A DNA stretch of 18,188 nucleotides from a virus (lineage: Duplodnaviria; Heunggongvirae; Uroviricota; Caudoviricetes), in the IMG/VR virus record IMGVR_UViG_2671181094_000006, one strand, 5' to 3'. The notes under the pieces are model-generated. The model searched no databases, had not been told where the DNA came from, and saw only the letters and a program-made list of their open reading frames with translations. This document shows positions 1 through 18,188 of the stretch, piece after piece (the stretch's first letter is position 1; the number at the start of each line of letters is the position of its first letter). The position numbers were made by a program, and so were the translations under genes.

Positions 1-537
1 TTACTCGTCCAGCAGAATCACTTTGCCGATATACGGCAGATGACGGTAACGCTGTGCGTAATCAATGCCGTAACCCACCACAAACTCATCCGGGATCGAG
101 AAACCGATAAATTCTACCGGGACGTTCACTTCACGACGGGACGGTTTATCCAGCAGCGTACAAATCGCCAGCGACTTCGGTTCGCGCAGGCTTAAGATCT
201 CACGCACTTTCGACAGTGTATTCCCCGAGTCGATGATATCTTCAACAATCAGCACGTCCTTGCCACGGATATCTTCATCCAGATCTTTGAGGATTTTCAC
301 ATCACGGGTGGTGGACATGCCGCTACCGTAGCTGGAGGCGGTCATAAAGTCGACTTCATGAGATACCTGAACTTCACGGCACAGGTCCGCCATAAACATA
401 AATGAGCCACGCAGCAGACCAACCAGCACCATATCGCTGCCGCTGTCTTTGTAACGCTCAGTAATCTGACGACCCAGTTCGGCGATACGCGCTTTAATCT
501 CCGCTTCGGGGATCATTACTTCTACAATATGTTTCAT
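1..537 (-). CDS. hpt: hypoxanthine phosphoribosyltransferase
   Basis: 178-aa ORF with ATG at 537 and TAA at 3-1. The product ([24 protein letters not shown]...[14 protein letters not shown]...) carries the PRPP-binding motif of type I phosphoribosyltransferases and matches enterobacterial Hpt as I recall it. An in-frame GTG at about 552 could be an alternative start. Confidence 0.9.
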
Positions 538-717
538 AATCTATATATCTCACTGATTTTAATCAGTTAAATTCAATCTCACACTATGCAATTCAGTAAA
601 TATTGATACACCGATTGATATACGGATTATCGCACAGAGCCGAAATCACGCATAAGCATGAGCACATTCCAAAGAGCTGGGGATTATAGCAAGGAAATAT
701 TGTAGGGGTAATGAATA

Positions 718-745
718 CCATGCCTGCTTACGATTGCAGGCATGG
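718..745 (-). terminator. perfect 10-bp inverted repeat hairpin (CCATGCCTGC-N8-GCAGGCATGG), possible terminator of the 755-1294 gene or an island-boundary palindrome
   Basis: Read directly from the sequence. It lies 9 nt downstream of the TAA of the 755-1294 gene on the minus strand; the trailing U-tract is only moderate (UAUUCAUU). Confidence 0.35.
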
Positions 746-754
746 TGCAGACAT

Positions 755-1294
755 TTAATCCATGAGGCTGTTCAGTGCTTGCTCAACACTTTCATACTTC
801 TGCGTAGTTGGTTTACCTGTTGCGTTTTTAACCATTGAGAACAAAACCACCTCGCCGCTTAGGTCTGAAACACCAGTTGACTCTAAATACGGCAATAATT
901 CTTTCTCATAGAACTCAATTTCTTTTAGTAGCATTTCATCAGGCCTACCAGCCCAAGAATTACGCTCCGGGGACTTTCCACGTTTTATAGAGTAATTAAG
1001 CGAAAATTCTTTATTTTCATATTTGAACTCAACTGCACCATCACAACCAAAGAAGCTTCCTGTGAGTTTTGAGAAATCAATGAGAGTATCAAGGCCGCCG
1101 TTATAAGTGGCTTTCAACTTAGGAGTCTGGCCTGTAATTGTAAATCCTTTAGATTTAAAAAATTCCAAAACATCTTTCTGAATAGCGGTAGCAGCATCAT
1201 TTATTTGTTTATTCAACAACTCGCGCCGAGGAGCGCTGAATTCTTCAATTTTTGCTTTAAGATCTTGTAGTTTCATTTTGTTAGCTAATGACAT
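755..1294 (-). CDS. hypothetical protein, AT-rich orphan cargo gene (179 aa from ATG 1294; the ORF track extends to 1369)
   Basis: Preferred start MSLANKMKLQDLKAKIEEF is preceded by AAGGAA at about 7 nt spacing. Codon usage is visibly AT-rich compared with hpt and the island backbone. No motif recognised. Confidence 0.6.
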   Translation of the reverse strand: MSLANKMKLQDLKAKIEEFSAPRRELLNKQINDAATAIQKDVLEFFKSKGFTITGQTPKLKATYNGGLDTLIDFSKLTGSFFGCDGAVEFKYENKEFSLNYSIKRGKSPERNSWAGRPDEMLLKEIEFYEKELLPYLESTGVSDLSGEVVLFSMVKNATGKPTTQKYESVEQALNSLMD

Positions 1295-1502
1295 ATAAAT
1301 TCCTTGTATATCCAGAGTAATAGCTGTGCATAGTCTATGCGATTTCATCCTACTGCTATAAAACATCAAATTCCATAAACATAACCATCAATTAGTTATA
1401 AATGCCTCGATGTTGAATGCGTCCCCCATACTCAACCGGGAATGGGCTGAGCACATTTATCATGACTGTGACCACCAGCCATGACGGCGGATTGTCATGA
1501 AT

Positions 1503-1547
1503 TACTAATGTATGATAGCACTGTCATACAATAAGGAATCTCCCACT
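1503..1547 (+). promoter_or_regulatory. conserved promoter/operator of paralog A (TATGAT -10-like element inside the inverted repeat TGTATGA-N8-TCATACA, then AAGGAA RBS)
   Basis: About 45 bp upstream of the start is conserved with the equivalent region at 5885-5929 (tgtatgatag..ct.tc..acaataaggaa). Confidence 0.45.
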
Positions 1548-1907
1548 ATGAGACTAACCAGCCGCAAAAAGACGATACTCAGCTACTTCGAACCGGATAA
1601 CCGCGACTGGGTGACGGGTGAGATCGGCGCACCTCCCCTTGATGTATCCGGCGTGGCGTACCTGCTGTATGGGACAGGCCTCGAAGACAACCGGCACTGG
1701 CTCGAATCCACCAGACGAACGCTGGAAGCAATGGTGAAAGATGGGTTGCTGGAGAGGTACCGGAGCAGGGAGGCGCGGAGTATCGTTATGGGCGGCGAGA
1801 CGACCGCTACCGTTGTCCGTTACGGCCTGCCGGGTACCGTTTCAGTGGTACGCGATACGGGAGGTGCAGACGGCACGATAGAAGGCGAATATGTGCGGGT
1901 CGTTTAA
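1548..1907 (+). CDS. conserved hypothetical protein, paralog A1 (119 aa), possible winged-helix-like regulator
   Basis: MRLTSRKKTILSYFEPDNRDWVTGEIGAPPLDVSGVAYLLYG... aligns along its whole length with the 5930-6289 product (MRMTSRKKEILSYFEPDNRDWVTGEIGAPPFDVSGVAYLLHG...). Start and upstream region are conserved between the two copies. Confidence 0.7.
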   Translation: MRLTSRKKTILSYFEPDNRDWVTGEIGAPPLDVSGVAYLLYGTGLEDNRHWLESTRRTLEAMVKDGLLERYRSREARSIVMGGETTATVVRYGLPGTVSVVRDTGGADGTIEGEYVRVV

Positions 1908-2095
1908 CGACGTGGATTATCTGGCCTCTTCCACTGGTAGGCTGGTGCCGTCATCCTCCGGCGGTGCCGTTCTTTAGCAGCGAGCGTTCCCGCAACCCTG
2001 CAACGTAACTCCAGCATATCGGTGGCATTCAGCTCATTCCCCTGCAGGCGGGCCAGCTCTTCAATTACCGCCTCGATTTTCTTCTGTTTTAACAC
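1904..2095 (-). CDS. small hypothetical protein A2 (63 aa, GTG start) with C-terminal APAYQWKRP...RR motif
   Basis: Convergent with A1, with the stops overlapping by 4 nt. The C-terminal motif is shared with the 6945-7130 product (RAPAYQWKKPAPRR). AGGAA lies 8 nt upstream of the GTG. Confidence 0.5.
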   Translation of the reverse strand: MLKQKKIEAVIEELARLQGNELNATDMLELRCRVAGTLAAKERHRRRMTAPAYQWKRPDNPRR

Positions 2096-2201
2096 GCTAT
2101 ATCTTCCTGCTCTATAGGCTCACCGGCTACGCCCTGAGCATCGTTATAAAAAGCCAGCCCCGGAGGGCTGGAATAACAGGAGCCCGCTGGCACACTTTGC
2201 T

Positions 2202-2789
2202 TTAATCGGTATCGTCGGCCAGGGCATACAGCAACGAAGGGATCACTCTCCGCATGGCTGTTTCTTCGGTTTCATCGCTCATGAGAGTCAGGGTGTAATC
2301 CCGGCACTCGTAAATCACATCATATGCAGACAGGCCGAACGCGCCGCCCGCAATGATCTGCCCAATTTCAACATCTGGCGTTTCAACAATCGACAGCCGG
2401 TAGCCGCCGAACGTCACAGGAGGGTTATAAGGCCCTTCGCTTACAAACAGCTCTACGGCCTTTGCAGCAACCTGGGCTCGTTCGTCCGGGTCCACCCCGG
2501 ACACCTTACCGGCACCTGACACCATGATGCGCTTAATCTCCGCAACACTCATTTCCACCAGCGTATACCCCTGCACCTCACCAGCTGGAGCAGGCTTGGT
2601 TTTACCCCTGGCATTCTTCGTACGCGGGTCACTGGCGCTGCGGTATCGTGCCAGATAAGTATCACAGGCCTCCTGGTCAATCTTCCCGTCAACCCGCGCC
2701 GGAAATCCTTCATGACTCTCCCAGTTATACAGTGCCTGCCGGCTCATTCCGGCATGTTTTGCGTACTGGCTGACGCTCATTAGTGACAT
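2202..2789 (-). CDS. HTH DNA-binding protein, phage Nu1-like (small-terminase-like N-terminus) / packaging-associated candidate
   Basis: N-terminus VSQYAKHAGMSRQALYNWESHEGFP resembles the lambda gpNu1 winged-HTH pattern (KKQLADIFGASIRTIQNWQEQGMP). AGGAG lies 7 nt upstream of ATG 2789. The gene sits beside a dense TGTCAA repeat array. Confidence 0.6.
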   Translation of the reverse strand: MSLMSVSQYAKHAGMSRQALYNWESHEGFPARVDGKIDQEACDTYLARYRSASDPRTKNARGKTKPAPAGEVQGYTLVEMSVAEIKRIMVSGAGKVSGVDPDERAQVAAKAVELFVSEGPYNPPVTFGGYRLSIVETPDVEIGQIIAGGAFGLSAYDVIYECRDYTLTLMSDETEETAMRRVIPSLLYALADDTD

Positions 2790-2825
2790 AATTTTTCTCC
2801 TGCCTCATTGTCACCGGCTGGCCAG

Positions 2826-3040
2826 TGTGTCAACCCGCCGGCGGGAAACTGTCAATCAAACGTCAAGGGATCAACCGCTTGACACTTTTTTCTGTCAACT
2901 TGACACTTTTCGGGCTGAAAGTGTCAATCAAACTGTCAATCAAAACTTTCACGAATTCCCCTGCATCACGCGCCGCCTCTGGACCTTAACAACCTGACAA
3001 CAAAAAAGTGTCAAGTGTAAAGTGTCAATCAAATTGAAAA
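2826..3040. repeat. array of TGTCAA / TTGACA motifs (four copies of TGTCAATCAAA, several GTGTCAA/TTGACAC, palindrome TGTCAAnTTGACA, 12-bp palindrome CCCGCCGGCGGG); candidate protein-binding (cosB-like or operator) region
   Basis: Read directly from the sequence in the 350-bp non-coding gap between the tfa stop (3138) and the Nu1-like gene start (2789). Confidence 0.6.
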
Positions 3041-3137
3041 CCTGCAGCTACAAAAACACTGCGGCGCGCAATGCCCGTGCCTTACAAAAGTCTCAGGAAG
3101 GACCCATTTTTTCTGAGGGCCATTCCATAGTTATCAC

Positions 3138-3563
3138 TTAATGAACTTCCGGCATCACAGGCCATTCAATATCTGGGGCATCATCAGGGTTAACACGACT
3201 GAGCAGAACGGAGTATTTTTCCCAGTGTTCCAGTCGCGTTTTTTCATCCAAGGTAGCCATTCCGTATTTCACAGCACGCGCTAAAGGGACGATAACGTCC
3301 TCAGCCTTTGTACGTTGCCGCTCTTTTTCAGCCCCAGCCAGCCTGGATAACTGTGCTTTGGTCTGTGGAGGTACATCGACCCACGAGGGCAAGCCATCAG
3401 CCCCTACCCCCCTTTGCTTACCTTCTGGTGGAACCCTGGTGAACTCGTGAAAAACGTTATCACTGACTGCTATAAGGTCCGCTGGTAGAGAATTGTTGTC
3501 CCGATAAGCTGGTAATAATTCATCAGGGTAAAAACACGCCGTTGACGCACTAAAATGATACAT
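3138..3563 (-). CDS. tail fibre assembly protein (Tfa-like chaperone)
   Basis: Start MYHFSASTACFYPDE and C-terminus HWEKYSVLLSRVNPDDAPDIEWPVMPEV match the conserved ends of phage Tfa chaperones (...W.KYR.LL.RVD...APDIEWP..P). Its ATG at 3563 follows the upstream TAG at 3566-3568 closely. Confidence 0.7.
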   Translation of the reverse strand: MYHFSASTACFYPDELLPAYRDNNSLPADLIAVSDNVFHEFTRVPPEGKQRGVGADGLPSWVDVPPQTKAQLSRLAGAEKERQRTKAEDVIVPLARAVKYGMATLDEKTRLEHWEKYSVLLSRVNPDDAPDIEWPVMPEVH

Positions 3564-3565
3564 GA

Positions 3566-4099
3566 CTATTCCCCTATAGCTAACCATCCAAAATTATCTG
3601 CATTACCCGAACTGCCGCTGATCCAGCCATATGCACGGAAACCGGAATTGGAATCATTGGTTACGGACACGTAACGATTTCCATCTGCGTACTTCGTAGC
3701 AACAATAGCAATAGCCCGCTTAGGAAAAGGTATCGGATACTGAACATTACCTGATGGTGAATTAATAGTGGCAGTTCCCATTTGAACAATAATATTTTTC
3801 TTTTCACCTGATGGTGTTCGGGTAGGAATAATACAGTAACCCTGTGAAGTAAGGGCACCTACGATGGGTTCAGATAGAAGGGCGGTGATCCTCAACTCAT
3901 CAATAACTTCGTTTAACTGACCATCATTTTCAGGCTCAAGCTGGCGGCCAGAACCCTCTACCACGCCCACCATCTCACGCTGCCAGGTATTAAAAATATC
4001 GGCAACAAGAATTGTTGGTGATACCCCATTAGCAACATTACCTTGTGTAAATTCCCCATTACTATCAGCAGTATCAGTGACTGAACTTATCTTACGCAT
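3566..4099 (-). CDS. tail-fibre-tip-like protein (177 aa), too short for a full fibre
   Basis: Directly upstream of and coupled to tfa, which is the usual fibre-chaperone arrangement. The C-terminal half is Gly/Ser/Asn-rich and looks beta-rich (...GWISGSSGNADNFGWLAIGE). The call is mainly positional. Confidence 0.45.
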   Translation of the reverse strand: MRKISSVTDTADSNGEFTQGNVANGVSPTILVADIFNTWQREMVGVVEGSGRQLEPENDGQLNEVIDELRITALLSEPIVGALTSQGYCIIPTRTPSGEKKNIIVQMGTATINSPSGNVQYPIPFPKRAIAIVATKYADGNRYVSVTNDSNSGFRAYGWISGSSGNADNFGWLAIGE

Positions 4100-4127
4100 T
4101 ATGCATATCCTTTAATTGATATCTTCG

Positions 4128-4586
4128 CTATATAGAAAGCGTATCTGCCATACTCACCGGCTCGATATACTTCTCAAGCGCTAACAGAGCGGCGTTAAAA
4201 CCAGCACGATAGCCGTTTGTGTCACCGTTAATCATGCTGTGTTGAAATGCCGCCATGTTCTGGTCTTCGGCATCAAGGAACTCCCAGCCAGGATAAACTT
4301 TCTCCATAGCCCGCCGGGTAAAACGACTGAGCTGGCGAGCGCTGCCTTTTAGTCTGGCAATAGCCTTCTGATGTGGGATCCCTTCCGCGATAAGATGAAA
4401 TGCCTGTATCGGATTTTGTTTTGCCGCTTTGCTCACCGCTATCAGATGCGCATCAGAATGGGGGCATTCAGGGAGTTCCTCTTCTTCAAGCGATTGCTGA
4501 AGCTGGTGCATACGCTGCATACGGCGCCCGGAAAAGCCATATGCATGCGCATCAGGTTGCTGCTTGTTGAGGTGCTGAAAGTTCAT
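4128..4586 (-). CDS. hypothetical protein, paralog of the 4607-5290 product (start taken at MNFQHLNK)
   Basis: Shares N-terminus (MxFxHL) and the central block WEF.D.E...NGY.A...AL.AL.K..EP with the upstream gene. GGAG lies about 9 nt upstream of ATG 4586. Confidence 0.6.
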   Translation of the reverse strand: MNFQHLNKQQPDAHAYGFSGRRMQRMHQLQQSLEEEELPECPHSDAHLIAVSKAAKQNPIQAFHLIAEGIPHQKAIARLKGSARQLSRFTRRAMEKVYPGWEFLDAEDQNMAAFQHSMINGDTNGYRAGFNAALLALEKYIEPVSMADTLSI

Positions 4587-4606
4587 AACGCTCATCTCCG
4601 CAGCTC

Positions 4607-5290
4607 TCAGAGAGGAACCTGCGATTTTAGGAGTTCGGCTTCTCGTGCCGGCCCTTCAATCTTGCCATTCACCCGACGGGTATCCCCCGGCAGGCTCACA
4701 CCAGATGCCCGGATACGATCGTTACGGCGTGCAGCAGCCTGCGCGACCTCTTCCCGGTACTCTTCGTCAGCCTTACGGCGAGCATTCACATTCTGAGGTG
4801 ACATAGGGTCATAGTCGTTTTGCATCTTAGATGCCTTGCTGGCTAATGCCTTAATCTCGTCTTCTGTCAGAGGCTCTTCCATCTTCTTCAGCGCCTTCAG
4901 AGCGCTACTCTGGGCAGCAGAGTAACCATTTGCATCACGGTTCTGCGTTGAAAACGTTAGCGCCGAGCGAGCTTTCTCTTCGTCATCCTGAAATTCCCAG
5001 GTCGGGTCATTCTCTTCCATAAACTTTTGGGTAAACACAGAAAGCGCCATCGGCGACGATGCCAGTTGCAGCTTTATTTTCTTCGAAGAAAGTTCCGTTT
5101 CCTTCAGCAAACGAACCGCCAGAACCGGGTTATTTTTTGCCTCCGGGGAAACCGCGACATTGTGGCCGCGACTGTGCTGCTTAGGTCTGGCGATCCGGGC
5201 GTCGTCACTGTCCAGTTTCAGTGGCACATTCCCGTTATCAGACTCGCCTTTCGTTTTGGTTTTGCCTGACAGATGCGAGAAATCAAACAT
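4607..5290 (-). CDS. hypothetical protein, longer paralog with Lys/Glu-rich C-terminal extension (start taken at MFDFSHLSGK; the ORF track extends to 5383)
   Basis: Paralogy with 4128-4586 supports the internal start at 5290 (GAGGAA upstream). The alternative start at 5383 also has a GAGGAAA RBS. Confidence 0.55.
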   Translation of the reverse strand: MFDFSHLSGKTKTKGESDNGNVPLKLDSDDARIARPKQHSRGHNVAVSPEAKNNPVLAVRLLKETELSSKKIKLQLASSPMALSVFTQKFMEENDPTWEFQDDEEKARSALTFSTQNRDANGYSAAQSSALKALKKMEEPLTEDEIKALASKASKMQNDYDPMSPQNVNARRKADEEYREEVAQAAARRNDRIRASGVSLPGDTRRVNGKIEGPAREAELLKSQVPL

Positions 5291-5327
5291 GGATGGGTTT
5301 TCCTCAGATAGTTGGGGCTGTTTTTTC

Positions 5328-5528
5328 TTATCTTTCGTACCGAACGCTCTTAGCGCCCATGCGGGTAACGTCATTAACGGCATGGCATGCTTTCCTCTGG
5401 TTGGCGATTATCCGGCGGAGCCACATGAGTTTTTTCTTCTGCTTTCTGAACAGGCGCTCTCTCTTCGCCGCGGCAAACCATTCCGGTAACACCCAGCTTG
5501 TTTTGCTCCTGCACTCCTGGCACGGCAT
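5328..5528 (-). CDS. small basic hypothetical protein (66 aa)
   Basis: Its ATG overlaps the stop of the upstream 58-aa gene as TAATG, suggesting translational coupling. No motif recognised. Confidence 0.35.
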   Translation of the reverse strand: MPCQECRSKTSWVLPEWFAAAKRERLFRKQKKKLMWLRRIIANQRKACHAVNDVTRMGAKSVRYER

Positions 5529-5704
5529 TACTTTTTATTTGTTTCATGTCTACTAATCCCCTGACGTAAAAGGTGACGCGCCAGCTCCTGAATACTCGGG
5601 GCTGCGCCTACGGTAGAACGTCGGCATTCATCCTCACGGAGGCGCTGTAAACCTTCGAGAATCGGCTGATCAACAAGAATCGGCTTTTTGTTAGTGACTG
5701 CCAT
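5528..5704 (-). CDS. small putative DNA-binding protein (58 aa, ribbon-helix-helix/Arc-like pattern); not in the ORF track because it is under 60 aa
   Basis: Translated by hand: MAVTNKKPILVDQPILEGLQRLREDECRRSTVGAAPSIQELARHLLRQGISRHETNKK. A strong AGGAGG RBS lies 7 nt upstream of ATG 5704. It is the first gene of the leftward operon, divergent from 5930-6289. Confidence 0.45.
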   Translation of the reverse strand: MAVTNKKPILVDQPILEGLQRLREDECRRSTVGAAPSIQELARHLLRQGISRHETNKK

Positions 5705-5884
5705 TTCCTGACCTCCTGATACTGGTTAAACGTACATACTTCTTCTGTATGGGGTTAACTTATGATCAATAAAATAAATCGTCAAGATAAAATATTTTAA
5801 TTAAAAGGGTTGCGGACTACATGAGGGGGTACTGATTGCGTTACAAAATGGAGGGGAAAGTTAAGTAGCCATTCCTCACCGCTT

Positions 5885-5929
5885 CTTATTGTATGATAGT
5901 GCTATCCCACAATAAGGAACCTGCCAGCC
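5885..5929 (+). promoter_or_regulatory. conserved promoter/operator of paralog B (TATGAT -10-like element, inverted repeat GATAG-N2-CTATC, AAGGAA RBS)
   Basis: Conserved with 1503-1547. Confidence 0.45.
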
Positions 5930-6289
5930 ATGAGAATGACCAGCCGCAAAAAAGAGATACTCAGCTACTTTGAACCGGATAACCGCGATTGGGTAACAGG
6001 TGAGATTGGTGCGCCGCCGTTCGATGTGTCGGGTGTGGCCTACCTGCTTCATGGCATGGGATCATTCGGTAAACGCCACCAGCTCGAATCAACCCGGCGT
6101 ACGCTCGAAAGCATGGTTGCCGGTGGACTGCTTGAGCGAATGACAGTGTATGAATCCCGTCAGGTACGGCGCGGCGGTGAAACCAGCGCAACAGTCGTGC
6201 GCTACGGTTTACCGGGACAGTGTGCCGTTGTGCGAGATAGTGGCGGCGCTGATAACGCAATACCAGGTGAATACATGCGGGTCAGTTAA
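5930..6289 (+). CDS. conserved hypothetical protein, paralog B1 (119 aa)
   Basis: Full-length similarity to the 1548-1907 product; about 80% nucleotide identity over the first 130 nt by eye. Confidence 0.7.
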   Translation: MRMTSRKKEILSYFEPDNRDWVTGEIGAPPFDVSGVAYLLHGMGSFGKRHQLESTRRTLESMVAGGLLERMTVYESRQVRRGGETSATVVRYGLPGQCAVVRDSGGADNAIPGEYMRVS

Positions 6290-7266: not shown

Positions 7267-7363
7267 TTGCTTGATGTGGACGGCTTGCTATATTGGCGGA
7301 GAATGCAAATTGTCGCAGAAGTCTATCCCGCTCCCTGACGCCCCGTGCGGGCGTTTTGCTTTT
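7267..7363 (+). ncRNA. candidate small RNA (about 60 nt): sigma70-like promoter plus intrinsic terminator on the plus strand in a minus-strand gene context
   Basis: -35 TTGCTT (7267-7272), 16-nt spacer, -10 TATATT (7289-7294). GC-rich hairpin ACGCCC-CGTGC-GGGCGT (7338-7354) is followed by TTTTGCTTTT. No ORF of substance. Confidence 0.25.
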
Positions 7364-7973
7364 ACAAAGTCAGGCCAATGCCTCTGGCTGCTTTCCCCGT
7401 CTTACGCTCAATCACGCCCGTGATTCTATCTACTACCGGACTGAATGCCTGCCAGTAAGCCATCTCCATTGCTGACAACTCTGCCCGCTTCCTGTCAAAC
7501 GTAGCCCAGCGCATCCCCTTTGGTTTTGGGAACATGCGAATATCATTAAACAGGTTATTGGTAAGGTCATTGTTGCCCCATATCGCGCATCGCTGCTGGC
7601 GTATCTTCATTCGCATCCTGTCCAGTCTGTCGGCGCTCTGGCTTTTATAGTGGAGTTTCCAGCATCCCCGGCAGCCAATATCTTTTTTGCCGATATACAG
7701 CTTCGCTACCCGCTTTATGCAGTGGGGACAGACGTACCATTCCCGCACACCATACCCGGCTTGTGTGGTCGTGGTTCTGATTGCCCGTGTAACGCCGTTG
7801 ATTGTCATGGCGTAGCTGTCGGCTTGCCGGAAGGTATAAAACGTTCCGCTTTCGGTCTGGGTATAAAGCTGCGTCCCCGGTTCGGCGTCCGCCAGCCTGC
7901 TACGCATGTGCGCAAGGAATGGCAACCCTATGCGGGGCAGGTCGGTGGTATAGCTGCGTGTTCTGCCTCTCAC
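7362..7973 (-). CDS. conserved island protein with putative zinc ribbon (CPHC...CRGC); possibly YagK/YfjJ (inovirus Gp2-like) family
   Basis: 203-aa ORF with GTG start at 7973 preceded by AGGAGG at 7 nt spacing. Cys pairs lie in WYVCPHCIKRVAKLYIGKKDIGCRGCW. The family assignment is from memory and weak. Confidence 0.6.
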   Translation of the reverse strand: MRGRTRSYTTDLPRIGLPFLAHMRSRLADAEPGTQLYTQTESGTFYTFRQADSYAMTINGVTRAIRTTTTQAGYGVREWYVCPHCIKRVAKLYIGKKDIGCRGCWKLHYKSQSADRLDRMRMKIRQQRCAIWGNNDLTNNLFNDIRMFPKPKGMRWATFDRKRAELSAMEMAYWQAFSPVVDRITGVIERKTGKAARGIGLTL

Positions 7974-7989
7974 TGGCTGGCCTCCTGTG

Positions 7990-8260
7990 AATTACTGCGA
8001 ATCAAACTGCGAATGCGCAAAAATGAATACGAAATAATATGCGTATTTTACTGTAAATTGCGCACCAGTTTTGCAATTTCACATCAATAAAGCCAGTAAC
8101 CGCGCGGGTTGAGGATGGTTTGCGCATTGGTATCCGTTTCGTTTTGCGCAGATTTTTTGTGAACTGCGCAAATCGCATTGCCGCCGTTAGAATCCGTCAG
8201 ATGGTACGCACGCTGAATGCGCAGTTTTGCCGCGTACCTGACTGCGTACTGCGAACCAGT
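7990..8260. repeat. cluster of palindromic TGCGCA hexamers (at least 6 copies) and CTGCGAA motifs (at least 4 copies) in a 420-bp non-coding region
   Basis: Read directly: atgcgcaaaaa, attgcgcacc, tttgcgcatt, tttgcgcaga, ctgcgcaaat, atgcgcagtt; actgcgaa occurs four times. Lies between the PerC-like stop and the 7362-7973 gene start. Confidence 0.4.
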
Positions 8261-8395
8261 GGCGCGAACCAGAATATTATGGACAACCTAAATCACGTTC
8301 TGGCTTCCAGCCCGCGACTGGCGCGGTTCTCTCTTCATATCGGCTTTGAGTCTGTCCAGTACAGTCCAGAATTTACAGCCGTTTTAGTGCGAACA

Positions 8396-8707
8396 TTACT
8401 GCGAACAGTCGCCCCCGATGGTGGCCTGTCGTTGCTTCTTGCCGCCATTTAACCGGAAGGCGTTACCGTTCGGTTGCGCTATCCCCATGCGGTGTTGCGT
8501 TTCGGTAACAGCTTTATGCAGATCGCCAAAGTCCTCAACCTTCACGGGCGGGCGCTTCACGTTCTCCAGACACGTTTCACGGCGGCGCTTTATCCATTCC
8601 CGATCATCGTCCTCGGTGCATAACAGCATGACTTCCATCCATCGCGCGGCGGCGCGTCGGTACAGCCCTTTTGCTTCCAGATCCTCGGCTTTACTGTCGT
8701 TTACCAT
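8396..8707 (-). CDS. PerC-family transcriptional activator-like protein
   Basis: N-terminus KAEDLEAKGLYRRAAARWMEVMLLC...REWIKRRRETCL resembles the PerC pattern (AE.LE..GLWRRA..RW.EV). GAGGGGG RBS upstream of ATG 8707. Confidence 0.55.
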   Translation of the reverse strand: MVNDSKAEDLEAKGLYRRAAARWMEVMLLCTEDDDREWIKRRRETCLENVKRPPVKVEDFGDLHKAVTETQHRMGIAQPNGNAFRLNGGKKQRQATIGGDCSQ

Positions 8708-8718
8708 GTGTATCCCCC

Positions 8719-9180
8719 TCAGAATGGATCTTCATCATCAAACGGCGGGCGCTGGTCAAAATCATCAGGGGTGTTATATAGCTCCCATCCCGGCGCGGAT
8801 TGTGTTGCGTGGCCTCTGCTGGCTCCGCTTGCTTTGACTGATTCGGCCCGCTTCCCGCCAGGGCGTACCGTTCTGGCGCTGATTACACTGTCGGCTACTA
8901 CCTGATAACCTTGCTGTATACCGCCATCCTTGCCCGTCCACTGATTGACCTGCATCGCTCCGGCAACACTGACTAAATCGCCTTTAACGTGTCCTGCCAG
9001 TGCGTCGGCCTGTTTGCCGAATGCCACCACGCCCAGCCAGAAAGTAACCTCTCCGCCCTCTGCTGCATGGCATGGCAGTGCCACCGCTAAACGCCCCATT
9101 GCCATGCTTGTACCGTTTGCTGTGGTGCGGGTCTGCGGGTCTGCGACTAAACGCCCGTAGGCTGATATCTGTGCTGTCAT
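8719..9180 (-). CDS. ssb: single-stranded DNA-binding protein
   Basis: OB-fold pattern (GRLVADPQTRTT.NG...W..VVAFGKQAD...KGD.V.V.G....QW) and acidic C-terminal tail DDEDPF typical of SSB. Confidence 0.8.
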   Translation of the reverse strand: MTAQISAYGRLVADPQTRTTANGTSMAMGRLAVALPCHAAEGGEVTFWLGVVAFGKQADALAGHVKGDLVSVAGAMQVNQWTGKDGGIQQGYQVVADSVISARTVRPGGKRAESVKASGASRGHATQSAPGWELYNTPDDFDQRPPFDDEDPF

Positions 9181-9283
9181 TTTGCGAATACCTCGAATTA
9201 TTAGTTTTGCTAATGAAGATTACCCGGCTCCGTCTTATTGTGGGACACCTTCGCCAGATTTTTTTGTATATAAACAAAAAAGT

Positions 9284-9545
9284 TGGTGGTTCAGGTGGTT
9301 CAGTGGTTCAGTACCCCTCTAGGCCGCGCCATCTCTGGGTTTTGCTGAACCACCTTTTAAATTTATCTGGTGGTTCAGTCGCCCTTCTTGGTGGTTCACT
9401 GCCAGCCAGTGAAAATAATCCGTTTCTCTCTGGTGGTTCAAAATACCCGTTTGGTGGTTCAGTGGTGGTTCACTTTCTTACAAAAAAACATTATAAATCA
9501 ATAACAATTACTTACTGAACCACTGAACCACCTGAACCACCACAA
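9284..9545. repeat. iteron array, putative satellite origin of replication (about 12 copies of GGTGGTTCA(G/C) in both orientations, flanked by A/T-rich stretches)
   Basis: Read directly, for example tggtggttcaggtggttcagtggttcag and ctgaaccactgaaccacctgaaccacc. Lies immediately downstream of the primase-helicase gene, analogous to the P4 ori/crr iterons. Confidence 0.7.
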
Positions 9546-9567
9546 AAAACCTCGCACGTGAAAAAGA

Positions 9568-12345
9568 TTATTGCTCTGGCTGGCTTTCCTCCCCATCCGG
9601 CAGGAATTGCAAAACGTAAACGTTAATCTGCCTCCCCTGAATGCGCGGGCTTTTCCTCTGAAATTTTTTTCCGTCTGCCGAAGGGGTAAGCATCCCCGAT
9701 TCTTTCAGGACGCGGGCCACCTGCTGCCTGTTAAACCCCTTAGCAATATCCTTATCGAAAGTGTCGGGGAACGTGTAAAACGTTATCGGTGAATCGTCAT
9801 GATTTCCGCGCTGCCTGTATCCAGCCAGATTATGAATCGGCAGGCTGGCGGGGTCGTAAGGCAGCGGCGCGAATCGACTCAGGCCATAGGCATTTAAAAA
9901 TGCCTCCGCCTGCTCGATGATCTGCTGGTGCTCTTTGTTCCCCGTGCCGAACTCTTTTAGCCATGCGTTATAGGCGTGCTGTATCGCATCCCGGCACGTT
10001 TGAGCATCCCAGCCAGTAACCACGCCACCCATCAGTAAAGCGGCCTCCAGAATGGCAAATCTTGCCCCTACACGGTGAACCTGTTCCCCATAGTCGGCAG
10101 GAATTAGACTGCGCCAGCGGGCCTCACACTCACGAACGGCATCAATCGCCTGTTGCTGGTGGTCTGAAAGCCATCTGATCCACTCCCTCCCGGCAGCGCC
10201 ATGATGGTTCTGGTAAGCGTCTTTCAGCGCGTCGGCGTGGTCTCTCCCTGTCTGGTACTCATGAAAGCGCACCGCCTTACTCAGCGGGATATTCAGCAGT
10301 CGCACCAGTTGCCCCGCTTTTGTCTTGCGTCCTGCGGTGGAGATGAACGTTTCTAAATCCATTTCCCCGGTGCTGATTGCCACGGTGCGCCAGCGTTTCA
10401 GATCCCGGTTGCCTCCTTCCTTTGCTCCCTGCAATTTCCCCACGCCGTTAAACAGGGCATAGGCAGACTGAGCAACGCTTATCGGGTCTGCGCCCTGTCC
10501 GACTTCATCCAGTGGCATCAGCCCGTCATTGTGGGCGGCGGCCTCGTTTATCAGCCCCAGCGCCGTTCCGTACCACGTCAGGCGCAAGGCATCAGGGTTG
10601 CCATAAAGACTGCTCGCCACGTTCTGCGTGGTTGTTTTCCCGGCGCTCGATTGCTCGTAAAAATGAATCCCGAAGCCGTCACGCTCCGCCAGCCCGATTA
10701 ACGGTGCTGCAAGTGCGGCGGCAATGCCTGTCATCATCGCGTAGTTACCGTATGCCAGACGCGCAACACTCTTACGCCAGCTCTCTGAGGTTCCCGCCAC
10801 GGTGTACCCGGCAGCGGCAGAACTGCGGCCACTGAATAAAACGGGTTGTGCAGGTGCGCCGATAATCTCCCCGTCCGGCATGATGTATGCCCCGCACTGC
10901 CAGCCAGTAGCGTGAGCAACACGCCACAATTCACGTGAGCCGCTACGCTGTAACCAGTCAGCCAGAATCGCCCGCAAGCTGCTTTTGGTGGTGACGTTAA
11001 CCCCGCCCGCTTTCAGGGTGCGCCAGCCTTCGCGCTCCCCGATATCAGCCAGGGGGATAGCCGCTGTTGTCGGTATGCCTGCGCCAAAGGCCAGCCAGCG
11101 TAATATCAGATACTGATCCTTGTCGTCCCGCCCGGTGCCGATAACGTCCATCGGTGAGGCCAGCCAGCTTTCATTGTTGATAATCTCGCCGCTTTCCTTG
11201 TCCACTTTAGGCGTGATCCAGTAAACGCCATCTTTGCGGCTCTCAATGCGGGGTTTTAGCGGGTCTTTCTCTGGCTGGTCAGTTTTACCGCCCTCAATGG
11301 CCTGTAGTTGTGGTTTCACGCATTCCCCCTGCGGCTGGTACATCGAATCATTAAACGCAGCCGTAGCGACTTCCAGCCCGTGTTGCTGGTGGTAGTCGTT
11401 CCAGTCAGCTTTGCTGTCAGTCGGTGGCAGCGATACCCAGCCAGCCACGGATAAAGCCGCTTTCTCTGCGGCCTCCTTCCCGATGTTGGTGGCTCCGGTT
11501 TCGGAGGCTGCTGTAGGGTGGTCGTTATCTGCGGCGATAATAATTTGCGACTGCGGGTGTTTCCGGCGCATTACTCCGGCAACGTGGATCAGGTTCCCGG
11601 CGTCAATTGCCGCCACTGTGAGCGCGTCAGGCCGCATCTGGTGAACGGACAGGGCGGTAGCCAGCCCCTCGGCAATCACGACGCTTTGAGGCCGTTCCAG
11701 CGCGTTTACGGCGTAATATGCCCCGCGCTTTGCCGATCCCTTAATGAGTCGCTTTTCTCCCTGCGGGGTGATGGTCTGCGCGGCTGTGACTGCGCCGGAT
11801 TCATCCACCAGCTCCAGCAATAACGAACCATCGGGCATAAGCGGGTATTTAAACCCGGTCAGCCCTTTTGATTGCAGGTACTCAGATTCTCCCTGTATGG
11901 ATCTCAGGCGCATTCCGGTATACAGACGGGCAAACGTAGCCCTTCGCTGATCTGCGTCCTCTGCTGCCTGTTTCTGGCGCTCCTGCTCACGCTGCTGGCG
12001 GTCTGCGGCTAACTGCCTCTGTCTCTGGCTGGCAGCGTCTGGTGCTGATTCTGCGGCCCGGTAATCAATACCCAGCACATCAGCGGCAAGCTGTGCCGCC
12101 TCCGTGGTGTCGCAGTTGTTCACCTTCTTAATCAGGTCTAAGCCATCGCCCGCGCCGCACTGGTTGCAGATAAAGCTGCCGCGCCCGTTGTCGTCGAATC
12201 TGAAACGGTCTTTCCCACCACATGCAGGGCAGGGGGCATGGCGGCGCGATGAATCAGGAACGTCGATAGACAATCCGGCCAGCACATAAGGCCATCGCCC
12301 TGCTGCGGCGCTGGTCACTTCGCGGATAAGGTCGATATTACGCAT
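9568..12345 (-). CDS. primase-helicase (P4 alpha-like: N-terminal zinc ribbon, TOPRIM primase, C-terminal P-loop NTPase)
   Basis: 925 aa. Zinc ribbon CPACGGKDRFRF...CNQCG, TOPRIM acidic motifs (VVIAEGLATALS ... IIIAADND), Walker A-like SSAGKTT. GGGAGG RBS upstream of ATG 12345. Confidence 0.9.
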   Translation of the reverse strand: MRNIDLIREVTSAAAGRWPYVLAGLSIDVPDSSRRHAPCPACGGKDRFRFDDNGRGSFICNQCGAGDGLDLIKKVNNCDTTEAAQLAADVLGIDYRAAESAPDAASQRQRQLAADRQQREQERQKQAAEDADQRRATFARLYTGMRLRSIQGESEYLQSKGLTGFKYPLMPDGSLLLELVDESGAVTAAQTITPQGEKRLIKGSAKRGAYYAVNALERPQSVVIAEGLATALSVHQMRPDALTVAAIDAGNLIHVAGVMRRKHPQSQIIIAADNDHPTAASETGATNIGKEAAEKAALSVAGWVSLPPTDSKADWNDYHQQHGLEVATAAFNDSMYQPQGECVKPQLQAIEGGKTDQPEKDPLKPRIESRKDGVYWITPKVDKESGEIINNESWLASPMDVIGTGRDDKDQYLILRWLAFGAGIPTTAAIPLADIGEREGWRTLKAGGVNVTTKSSLRAILADWLQRSGSRELWRVAHATGWQCGAYIMPDGEIIGAPAQPVLFSGRSSAAAGYTVAGTSESWRKSVARLAYGNYAMMTGIAAALAAPLIGLAERDGFGIHFYEQSSAGKTTTQNVASSLYGNPDALRLTWYGTALGLINEAAAHNDGLMPLDEVGQGADPISVAQSAYALFNGVGKLQGAKEGGNRDLKRWRTVAISTGEMDLETFISTAGRKTKAGQLVRLLNIPLSKAVRFHEYQTGRDHADALKDAYQNHHGAAGREWIRWLSDHQQQAIDAVRECEARWRSLIPADYGEQVHRVGARFAILEAALLMGGVVTGWDAQTCRDAIQHAYNAWLKEFGTGNKEHQQIIEQAEAFLNAYGLSRFAPLPYDPASLPIHNLAGYRQRGNHDDSPITFYTFPDTFDKDIAKGFNRQQVARVLKESGMLTPSADGKKFQRKSPRIQGRQINVYVLQFLPDGEESQPEQ

Positions 12346-16869: not shown

Positions 16870-16961
16870 ATCGTCACCCTCAACGCCCCTAAATAACTTG
16901 CGGGCCAGGCGGGTAGGGTTTCCCGCTTTTCGGTTGGCCGACCTAGACCCGCAATATCAGT

Positions 16962-18188
16962 TTAATCTCTATTCGCTACAGGTAACAGAACCACATTTTT
17001 ATGATTACCCGCAAGAAGTTCTAAACGTTCATGCCATTTGTTCAGCGCATCCAGCTTCTCCGGCAAGTACAGGCTACGGTTATATATAGCCATGACGCCC
17101 GGTAGAGCATGACCCAGCAGCAACTCTACAATATGCGGTGCTATGCCCATATTGTTTAACCCCGTGGAGAACGTGCGCCGCAGATCGTGAAGTGTCCACG
17201 GCTCGTTATGATGGAAATCTTTAAAAAGCCGTCGCCCTTTCAAAGATACAGCTTGCCGGGTGCGCTCTTCTCCCAGCAGCAGGCCTGTTTTACCCGTCTC
17301 GCGTTTTAACTCTTCCAGCCACGGGCGTATAGCTTCAGGGATTGATCTCACGATTTTCTCGCGGGTTTTGCTGTGCTCTTTCGGGACTGTCCAAATCCAC
17401 GAGGTAAAATCCCACTCCGACCATCGAGAGAGGCGAACTTCCATCGTTCGAGCGCCAAACAGCACCAGCATTTTGAGAAGACGTGAATAATACGGCTGCT
17501 GATCATCGCTGTCTGTGCAGCGCCATACATCGGCCAGCTCGCTATCTGACAATACGCGGTCACGTTGACCGGATGGCTGGCCTACATCCTGAATGGTGAG
17601 AAAGGCTAGAGCATCACTGGCGGCATAGCGGCGAACCTTGCAGAAGCGTAACGCCTGTTTAGAAATCTGGAACATGCGGCCGGCGGTCATGGGTTTGGTC
17701 AGATTTATTTCATCAAAACAGGCCACCCAATGACGGGTTTCACATCTGGTGAGGGGATAACGACCAAGGCGCGGGTAAATATGCTTGCGTAGCTGTGCCC
17801 TTACCAGCTCCTCATCGCTGCGCTTTCTCCTGGCGTAGTTCACCAGCCAGTATTCGAGAGCATCCTGTACTGTCACAGGTTTAAGCGTTTCTTCGGTGCT
17901 CAGTTCAAGCTCTGTTTTTGGATCAAGACCACCAGCCAGCCACTGGCGACACTTTTCCCGCTTTTCTCTCGCCGCTTTTAGCGACAAATCCGGGTAACGG
18001 CCAAGCGTTAAACGTTCGAGTTTGCTACCCCTTCCGCCCAATCGGTAAGCGAACACCCAGCTAACGTTACCTTGCTTCGAAACCTTAATGCTCAGTCCTT
18101 CACCATCGGCAATCATGATCGGTGCTTCACGCTCAGAACCCTGCAGCGCTTTTAGCTTTTTGTCGCTCAGTTTGTTTGTACCAGCCAT
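16962..18188 (-). CDS. int: tyrosine recombinase, P4-type integrase (N-terminal arm-binding domain plus catalytic domain)
   Basis: 408 aa. N-terminal DGEGLSIKVSKQGNVSWVFAYR resembles the P4-family arm-binding motif. C-terminus has HDLRRTFST and LLGHA...AIYNRSLY (catalytic R, H-x-x-R, Y). The start codon sits exactly at the window edge, so the true N-terminus could lie beyond it. Confidence 0.9.
   Translation of the reverse strand: MAGTNKLSDKKLKALQGSEREAPIMIADGEGLSIKVSKQGNVSWVFAYRLGGRGSKLERLTLGRYPDLSLKAAREKREKCRQWLAGGLDPKTELELSTEETLKPVTVQDALEYWLVNYARRKRSDEELVRAQLRKHIYPRLGRYPLTRCETRHWVACFDEINLTKPMTAGRMFQISKQALRFCKVRRYAASDALAFLTIQDVGQPSGQRDRVLSDSELADVWRCTDSDDQQPYYSRLLKMLVLFGARTMEVRLSRWSEWDFTSWIWTVPKEHSKTREKIVRSIPEAIRPWLEELKRETGKTGLLLGEERTRQAVSLKGRRLFKDFHHNEPWTLHDLRRTFSTGLNNMGIAPHIVELLLGHALPGVMAIYNRSLYLPEKLDALNKWHERLELLAGNHKNVVLLPVANRD

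Follow-up and report, generated by a model that had tools for sequence, protein, structure and literature searches.

How a phage satellite that carries neither a recognisable cos site nor a terminase gene has its DNA packaged is the question raised by an 18,188-nt stretch of viral DNA, IMG/VR record IMGVR_UViG_2671181094_000006 (referred to below, at its full length, as the window). The window is an integrase island of the Gram-negative phage-inducible chromosomal island (PICI) kind, and a non-coding gap between the gene for a zinc-ribbon (Zn-ribbon) protein and a PerC-like gene holds a dense cluster of short repeats. A first-pass annotation of the same letters had taken this cluster for a multi-site binding region. 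We analysed the cluster, the corresponding gaps of sister islands, and similar arrays found inside phage genes for the terminase small subunit (TerS, gene terS). We put the probability at roughly one half that the array is a mimic of a phage pac site, by which a helper phage would recognise and package the island, with the promoter of the Zn-ribbon gene probably embedded in it.

To describe the cluster, we counted its motifs in the window and in shuffled sequence. TGCGCA starts at 8014, 8059, 8121, 8145, 8165 and 8218, giving six copies in 210 bp. Window-wide the hexamer is not enriched (11 observed vs 8.8 expected); its clustering is. Six copies in 210 bp were reached in none of 2000 dinucleotide-preserving shuffles of the window (maximum 4), and shuffles of the 422-bp gap alone gave a mean of 0.49 copies vs the 6 observed, with 0 of 5000 reaching 6. 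No comparable hexamer cluster was found elsewhere in the window. These shuffles bear out the claim that TGCGCA is clustered beyond chance. Of four CTGCGAA motifs reported for positions 7990 to 8260, three are in that range (starts 7995, 8007 and 8249), while the fourth starts at 8399, outside it, in the last codons of the PerC-like open reading frame (ORF). Both motifs are subsets of one oriented motif, which is TGCG[A/C/T]A on the plus strand and T[G/A/T]CGCA on the minus strand, the strand of the genes, where its extended form is GGT[T/A/G]CGCA(G). Across 7996-8405 it occurs in 13 sense copies and 1 antisense copy, spaced irregularly. The site is directional, as its flanks and its non-palindromic variants show, rather than the palindrome for which TGCGCA was taken in the first-pass annotation. 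The parts of the gap are as follows.

7974-8395 (422 bp): non-coding gap carrying the array, between the Zn-ribbon ORF and the PerC-like ORF, as defined by the ORF map, the sequence, clustering statistics and homologous gaps.
7995-8064, minus strand: proximal hexamer group, with sense starts at 7996, 8008, 8014, 8040 and 8059, flanking the conserved core.
8024-8040, minus strand: conserved core ATATTATTTCGTATTCA, which holds a TATTAT hexamer resembling a -10 element and is specific to the region upstream of the Zn-ribbon gene.
8121-8170, minus strand: middle group of three TGCGCA (8121, 8145, 8165) plus ACGAAAC (plus-strand GTTTCGT at 8136-8142).
8200-8272, minus strand: distal pac-like block, GGTTCGC-N6-GGTTCGCAgTACGCAgtcaGGTACGCggcaaaacTGCGCA, then 7 nt, then the inverted TGCGTACC.
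8312-8326, plus strand: GC-rich hairpin CCGCGactggCGCGG, a terminator-like match with a T-rich run on the plus strand only.
8352-8369, minus strand: CTGGAC-N4-CTGGAC box, CTGGACTGTACTGGACAG, part of a repeated intergenic unit.
8387-8406, minus strand: pair of TTCGCA (starts 8388 and 8400) straddling the stop codon of the PerC-like gene and kept in sister loci L003, L126 and L127.

The distal block is the part of the gap whose sequence most resembles the phage arrays described below. On the minus strand, 8218-8272 contains GGTTCGC, GGTTCGCA, (G)TACGCA, GGTACGC and TGCGCA, so that at least three direct copies of GGT[A/T/G]CGC(A) lie within about 100 bp. The inverted TGCGTACC, which is GGTACGCA on the plus strand at 8203-8210, follows 7 nt past the last direct hexamer; the phage arrays likewise have an inverted copy beyond their direct run, the distance there being taken as 10-25 nt. 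The window contains three full GGT[A/G/T]CGCA octamers, all at 8059-8257, a result obtained in 1 of 1000 Markov simulations. A BLAST search with the gap against a phage collection gave no match. Towards the Zn-ribbon gene, the last hexamer stands 9 nt from the Shine-Dalgarno sequence, and it is fused to the Shine-Dalgarno sequence in most sister loci (TTCGCAGGAGG). A search of both strands of 7300-9700 for sigma-70 promoters (-35 and -10 elements with 16-18 nt spacing) found no site, and the lone TATTAT is that of the core. Two ORFs inside the gap (8002-8178 on the minus strand and 8120-8452 on the plus strand) are not conserved, and E. coli S43 lacks about 8073-8243. The hairpin and its T-rich tail (8280-8335, plus strand only) are antisense to the operon; the tail is not kept in all copies of the repeated unit, and the hairpin could terminate a short antisense transcript that starts in the array.

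Related gaps came from three sources: E. coli sequences similar at the DNA level, GTDB genomes and assemblies searched with the Zn-ribbon protein, and viral contigs scanned for a conserved 16-mer. Ahead of the Zn-ribbon homologues of E. coli, Kluyvera, Enterobacter, Buttiauxella, Yersinia and Serratia, some as low as 56% in protein identity, oriented hexamers were found at 8-16 sense copies per locus. Copy number and spacing vary, and the gaps differ by large insertions and deletions: S43 is about 170 bp shorter, and WWCOL-256 about 300 bp longer. Over 19 loci the strand bias was pronounced for TTCGCA (59 vs 14 TGCGAA), for CGCAGT (73 vs 12 ACTGCG) and for ACGAAAC (24 sense, 0 antisense). The core lies 25-60 nt ahead of the start codon with hexamers on both sides; its 8-mers TATTATTT, ATTATTTC and TTATTTCG are present in 19 of 19 upstream regions, and the next three 8-mers in 18 of 19. 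The arrangement of the proximal group recurs in L008, L010, L014, L019, L060 and L120. Scanning viral contigs with the core 16-mer recovered array-bearing loci, each with the Zn-ribbon gene directly downstream. The motif has thus been kept, as an oriented motif, while copy number, spacing and flanks changed across at least six enterobacterial genera, which supports the reading of the gap as a multi-site binding region. The array is found with three unrelated primase types (DUF927, P4-family and DUF5906), and many of the islands lack PerC; in four array-bearing loci (L001, L002, L010 and L014) no PerC gene is annotated or detectable nearby. Together, these two observations argue against a replication role and against PerC control, both of which had been proposed for the cluster.

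To find similar arrays in phages, we scanned viral contigs for the double site GGTDCGCAGTDCGCAG. The matches were about as many as the estimated chance number, with true local arrays among them; since scans with 16-18 specified bases match near the chance rate (a few hundred expected), only local arrays were counted. Several matches with a 15-bp period (L263, L254, L299 and L301) were left out because their spacing, on its own, suggested that they are probably tandem coding repeats. One group of arrays lies inside the annotated terS gene of the phages HK639, SEN34 and KO-TP1. In the 49.6-kb genome of HK639, five of the nine GGT[A/G/T]CGCA octamers fall within 170 bp of terS, each in sense orientation. 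The terS arrays of GGT[A/T/G]CGCA consist of 3-6 direct copies and one inverted copy at a spacing of 8-19 bp. TerS homologues of 40-60% identity have 4-6 copies of GGTACGCA at the same place, right after the segment for an N-terminal helix-turn-helix (HTH; consensus ...LSLR.IA..YGISEGAIRKRAKK..W), and three different C-terminal domains follow this module, which has at least 492 relatives. An inverted copy is present within 45 nt in 89 of 99 arrays of the GGTACGCA class. When 75 terS genes were picked by N-terminal protein similarity alone, each had 2-5 octamers, compared to 4 in 178 kb of flanking DNA, the genes being closely related. Within one terS gene some copies of the octamer encode V-R and others G-T-Q, and in 33 of the 89 ORFs that contain three or more octamers these fall in more than one reading frame. 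The repeat is therefore maintained at the DNA level.

A motif-blind tblastn search with the 43-aa HTH module returned 47 phage records from about ten genera. Twelve of these records were inspected and, with HK639, SEN34 and KO-TP1, form a sample of 15 phages. Most of the twelve have a run of three to five direct copies and, after it, an inverted copy. Across the 15 phages the octamer co-varies with the recognition helix of the HTH, with position and layout the same in most. The pairs are listed by helix, site and phage.

(E/T)EGAIRKR or EGGIRKR, with GGTACGCA: HK639, SEN34, KO-TP1, Aeromonas pAEv1818, Klebsiella Chronis, Edwardsiella GF-2 and Erwinia EhrS_49.
DTAIRKK, with GGTTCGC: Pseudomonas PseuP_222 and FBPa19.
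HNTILKR or HATILKR, with GGTGACCA or GGTAACCA, GGT(G/A)ACCA: Pseudomonas PS-1 and Enterobacter ENT1.
HGAINKR or HGAVNKR, with GGTATCCA: Pseudomonas USP_25 and 8P, and Acidovorax AP1.
HQAISKR, with GGTTGCCA: Providencia PSTCR7lys.

Such co-variation is expected if the HTH binds the array beside its own coding sequence. Because the octamer follows the recognition helix, the phage arrays are probably TerS-binding pac sites. Repeats in or near terS that are bound by TerS are an established way for pac phages to mark their DNA (SPP1, PMC4737164; P22, PMC11260489). A literature search found no description of these octamer arrays, which does not prove that none exists. Arrays of GGT[T/G]CGCA were also seen in GC-rich phage contigs, where they are intergenic and upstream of a gene for a ParB-N-DNA methylase fusion (L235 about 1600-1750, L162 7917-8060, L128 about 1120-1260, L312 6740-6945); in L312 this gene is followed by genes for a lambda-type terminase large subunit (TerL) and a portal protein.

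Displayed side by side, the island array and the phage arrays share one layout, a run of direct copies and then an inverted TGCGTACC. Neither the window nor the sister islands encode an HTH TerS. In the window, the lambda cosN sequence GGGCGGCGACCT gave only a one-mismatch match at chance level, inside the primase gene, and the cos sequences of P2 and P4 gave no match with up to 3 mismatches. We propose that the gap is an array of oriented sites of the kind that the N-terminal HTH of a widespread phage TerS module would recognise. In the phages, the array within terS, directly after the part that encodes the HTH, would serve as the pac recognition site; the island, which has no such TerS, would carry the array ahead of its last gene module. 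A helper TerS with an EGAIRKR or DTAIRKK helix would then bind the array on replicated island DNA, and this binding would start packaging of the island by headful. The array region would probably also contain, at the TATTAT-bearing core, the promoter of the Zn-ribbon operon, an arrangement resembling that of SPP1. Among the functions suggested when the cluster was first noticed, a packaging element is the one best supported, through the match to the phage terS arrays.

In the sister islands, the array is also part of a larger repeated unit, which has the order CTGGAC-N4-CTGGAC box, GC hairpin, GTCCAAAATATTCTGG and then GGTNCGCAgTNCGCA. The hairpin CCGCGactggCGCGG recurs in each unit of L004, L126, L127 and L232. 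The unit precedes several different genes, and the arrays of sister islands stand ahead of packaging-type cassettes. The genes found behind the unit are the following.

Gene for a 125-aa protein: L126, L127, L001 and L046.
ORF resembling HK97 gp10 (likeness by eye only): L232 and L138.
Zn-ribbon gene.

The first of these encodes a protein of 125-161 aa with a GNTNAVKHG motif and without an HTH (L126 5157-5534, L001 6329-6706, L046 2190-2675). The 125-aa form can be aligned to the region of TerS encoded beyond the array (41% over 49 aa) and gives a weak PHROG terS match. This protein could be a terminase-interacting factor analogous to Rpp, the winged-HTH protein of EcCICFT073-type PICIs. In L046, a GGTACGCA array shows visible homology to a phage terS array and is followed by a 161-aa ORF and then by a homologue of the 125-aa protein. 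L019 has six copies of TTGCGTACC in the opposite orientation at 7400-7510, about 800 bp upstream of its main array and before the 125-aa gene. Insertions as well as deletions have their ends in these units, among them the deletions of L126 and L127. L012, from Dickeya, contains an AT-rich insert (3437-6000) between the distal hexamers and the Zn-ribbon gene, with a 344-aa gene and a gene with a GmrSD_N domain. The gap therefore acts as an insertion point for cargo, here a defence gene.

The genes and elements around the gap place it in its island. Together with a gene for a single-stranded DNA-binding protein (SSB), those with a strand given below are all on the minus strand.

7362-7973, minus strand: Zn-ribbon gene (203 aa, CPHC...CRGC), with a GTG start and AGGAGG seven nt upstream.
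8396-8707, minus strand: PerC-like gene (Pfam PerC, E=2e-29), upstream of the gap.
9280-9545: iteron field of about eight direct GGTGGTTCA(G) copies and three inverted TGAACCAC copies around an AT-rich stretch, directly after the DUF927 primase gene.
9568-12345, minus strand: gene for a Zn-ribbon/Toprim/DUF927 primase-helicase.
16886-16953, minus strand: int-alpA RNA (Rfam RF02996, 62.6 bits), between the integrase gene and a 279-aa ORF.
16962-18188, minus strand: P4-type integrase gene.

Within these islands, the Zn-ribbon gene is the most consistent companion of the array. Its protein has no Pfam, PHROG or NCBIfam match. We collected 86 homologues, with named sources almost all from Enterobacterales, and a profile search returned 8702 clusters at E<=0.001 and 1755 at E<=1e-10. 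The AlphaFold2 (AF2) model is confident (mean predicted local distance difference test, pLDDT, 81.6) and has no fold match. Some remote members of the family adjoin DUF6502 genes (L124). The PerC-like gene, judged from its occurrence across loci, is context, and the array does not require PerC. No family match was obtained for the 279-aa ORF beside the int-alpA RNA, and none to the AlpA family among the small ORFs tested. Origins of Gram-negative PICIs consist of short repeats either side of an AT-rich stretch (PMC6092414), and the iteron field at 9280-9545 is likely the replication origin of the island. The SSB and PerC-like genes separate the primase gene from the 422-bp gap. With an origin at 9280-9545, the hexamer cluster therefore counts as a further cis element, distinct from the origin. 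In L010, likewise, a field of GTTGGTTCA iterons (5595-5700) lies between the primase gene and the hexamers, as two separate adjacent elements. At the other end, window positions 1-5400 carry genes for a tail-fibre C-terminal domain and a tail-fibre assembly protein (3138-4099) and for a phosphoribosyltransferase (1-537). These genes fall past the ends of the sister islands, of which the E. coli end adjoins dinD, after a 119-aa plus-strand gene (5930-6289), and a separate element may account for the left part of the window. That part also has three repeats resembling GTGTCAATCA at 2850-3022, between the ORFs 2202-2789 and 3138-3587.

Several observations weigh against the array being a pac mimic. 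The pac status of the phage arrays is itself drawn from co-variation. The island sites are degenerate (TGCGCA about 50%, TTCGCA 33%, TACGCA 17%), about a fifth of them have the GG prefix, and full octamers in the window number three. Their spacing within 7996-8255 is 6-62 bp, compared to 8-19 bp in the phage arrays, and the island array does not show the tight GGTACGCA consensus at that 8-19 bp spacing by which the phage arrays are recognised. It is intergenic, unlike the phage arrays, which lie inside terS 3' of the HTH segment, and its conserved core and ACGAAAC have no counterpart in them. We know of no helper phage for the island, and terS of the HK639 type is rare: among the matches listed, about 10 of 5426 complete E. 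coli genomes match most of a 400-nt query and 7 cover at least 80%. The Zn-ribbon protein comes from a very large unannotated family and has no fold match. Finally, some sister islands have two or three arrays, each ahead of a different cassette gene, and the last hexamer adjoins the Shine-Dalgarno sequence. One array per cassette and this adjacency fit promoter control at least as well as packaging.

Promoter control alone is one way to read these features. The gap would be purely a promoter/operator array without a packaging role, its hexamers being sites for a factor that activates or represses the Zn-ribbon operon and the neighbouring cassettes; possible factors are the Zn-ribbon protein itself, some other protein of the island and a regulator from the helper phage. 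Consistent with this, the array immediately precedes a gene whose Shine-Dalgarno sequence is strong, the hexamers flank the TATTAT core, the core goes with the Zn-ribbon gene in all recovered loci, and any promoter in the gap would need an activator because no consensus sigma-70 promoter was found. Such an operator leaves unexplained why the same octamers, in the same layout, are found in the coding part of phage terS genes and change together with the HTH of TerS. PerC is inconsistently present, and as a regulator of the array it was rejected on co-occurrence; the Zn-ribbon protein, as modelled, has no recognisable DNA-binding fold; and L003 and L004 retain the core and the gene with the proximal hexamers lost. 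We regard a pure operator as the main competing reading, possible but doubtful. RgdR was also considered and was set aside, the literature showing an unrelated 99-aa protein. A different account keeps packaging and changes the target. Phage sites are almost all GGTACGCA (or GGTTCGC), whereas the island mix is mainly TGCGCA and TTCGCA, and the array might then be a shifted pac site to which an island protein retargets the helper terminase, away from phage sites, as a headful counterpart of Rpp. Candidates for this protein are the orphan Zn-ribbon protein, which is always beside the array, and the HTH-less TerS-like 125-aa protein of the sister islands. We consider retargeting of this kind unlikely.

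The structure of the gap also bears on recombination, which had been suggested for the cluster at the outset. The units might form a cassette-exchange module, serving as homology or as site-specific targets for the gain and loss of accessory genes. The gap is a hotspot of insertions and deletions (S43, WWCOL-256), the box-hairpin-hexamer unit is repeated before each cassette, L012 carries its GmrSD_N insert and the L126 and L127 deletions end inside units. Only in that loose sense is a recombination site possible. No recombinase co-varies with the units, the hexamers are kept as oriented short sites rather than as long homology, and exchange may be a by-product of repeated DNA, which makes a dedicated exchange module improbable. 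GGTGCGCA bears some likeness to the XerC arm of dif/cer sites; this idea was dropped, as there is no XerD arm and the sites stand in arrays rather than in pairs. The motif is oriented on the sense strand, and folding z-scores of about -2.2 and -2.1 might point to an RNA-level element, either protein-binding sites on a transcript or a structured leader of the Zn-ribbon mRNA. The two strands fold to the same degree, as palindrome-rich DNA is expected to; about 20% of the sites have the opposite orientation, and the insertions and deletions leave no constant structure. At gathering thresholds int-alpA was the sole Rfam match over the window, and 7900-8450 gave no Rfam match even at E<=5. An RNA role is thus very improbable. 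A second replication element, whether a second origin or a cis region like the P4 crr that the island primase would bind, is suggested by the short repeats either side of an AT-rich core, and P4 has an origin plus crr (PMC6092414, discussion). The gap is not directly downstream of pri-rep, however, as a PICI origin would be, and its repeats do not co-vary with the primase. The P4 crr repeats are the same as the P4 origin repeats, unlike those of the gap, which differ from the primase-proximal GGTGGTTCA iterons of the island origin. With the array unchanged beside DUF927, P4-family and DUF5906 primases, we give a replication role almost no credence. Taken together, the cluster seen in the first-pass annotation is confirmed and its interpretation is partly supported.

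Were the array to act as a pac mimic, its meaning would extend beyond this island. Many Gram-negative PICI-like islands have no cos or terminase gene; such "type C" elements are abundant and not confidently annotatable (PMC11773190), and the array offers a testable answer to how they are packaged. The pac-mimic reading predicts the type of helper, namely phages with an EGAIRKR or DTAIRKK TerS helix. For the phages themselves, pac sites are unknown for many that package by headful, e.g. ES18 (PMC11260489). The helix-octamer pairs may be a readable pac code for many phages. If the pairing is confirmed, pac sites could be read from phage genomes, and the pairs would amount to a recognition code predicting both pac sites and helper-satellite pairings from sequence. 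Readable pac sites would in turn aid the prediction of transduction and the design of packaging signals for phage-based delivery.

Among known systems, the pac site of SPP1 consists of sets of direct repeats that span the terS promoters (PMC4737164). The Bacillus phages SPP1 and SF6 are thus similar to the island in having a packaging signal made of several sets of short direct repeats. Their repeat sequences and TerS family are different, and the SPP1 site belongs to a phage that encodes its TerS, whereas the array belongs to an island without terS. PICIs of the EcCICFT073 type share with the island a P4-like integrase, an int-alpA region, pri-rep with an iteron origin, SSB and PerC, and their packaging signal likewise lies just upstream of a small island protein gene (PMC6092414, PMC9026076). 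They differ in having a lambda-type cosN and Rpp; the window has no cosN and no Rpp-like or HTH TerS protein. The array resembles the Gram-negative PICI origin in that it too is made of short repeats around an AT-rich stretch (PMC6092414). In contrast, the island has its own origin with other repeats at 9280-9545, and the array is independent of primase type.

Two further systems place repeats around a centre. In parC of plasmid R1, regular 11-bp iterons flank the parMR promoter and are bound by ParR, which is encoded downstream. The array is similar in that its direct repeats flank what is probably a core promoter immediately ahead of an operon, and differs in its irregular spacing and in a downstream protein without a known DNA-binding fold. 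The pac site of phage P1 has seven hexanucleotide repeats on both sides of a central region, of the form TGATCA/G, and is regulated by Dam methylation. The likeness lies in the hexanucleotide repeats flanking a central region; the difference is that the island hexamers, T[G/T/A]CGCA, contain no GATC. The complex pac site of P1 is mentioned in PMC11260489. The Vibrio satellite PLE (PICI-like element) mimics the pac site of its helper phage ICP1, and this mimicry is needed for transduction (10.1101/2024.04.22.590561). Like the island, PLE is a satellite without a terminase of its own that carries a sequence resembling a helper pac. In PLE this is a single 14-bp match to the ICP1 pac, used with the proteins Gpi and GpsA/B, whereas the island has a degenerate multi-copy array. 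With about even odds, then, the element in the 422-bp gap would be the packaging signal of a satellite and would imitate the pac site of a phage, a variant of an already known strategy.

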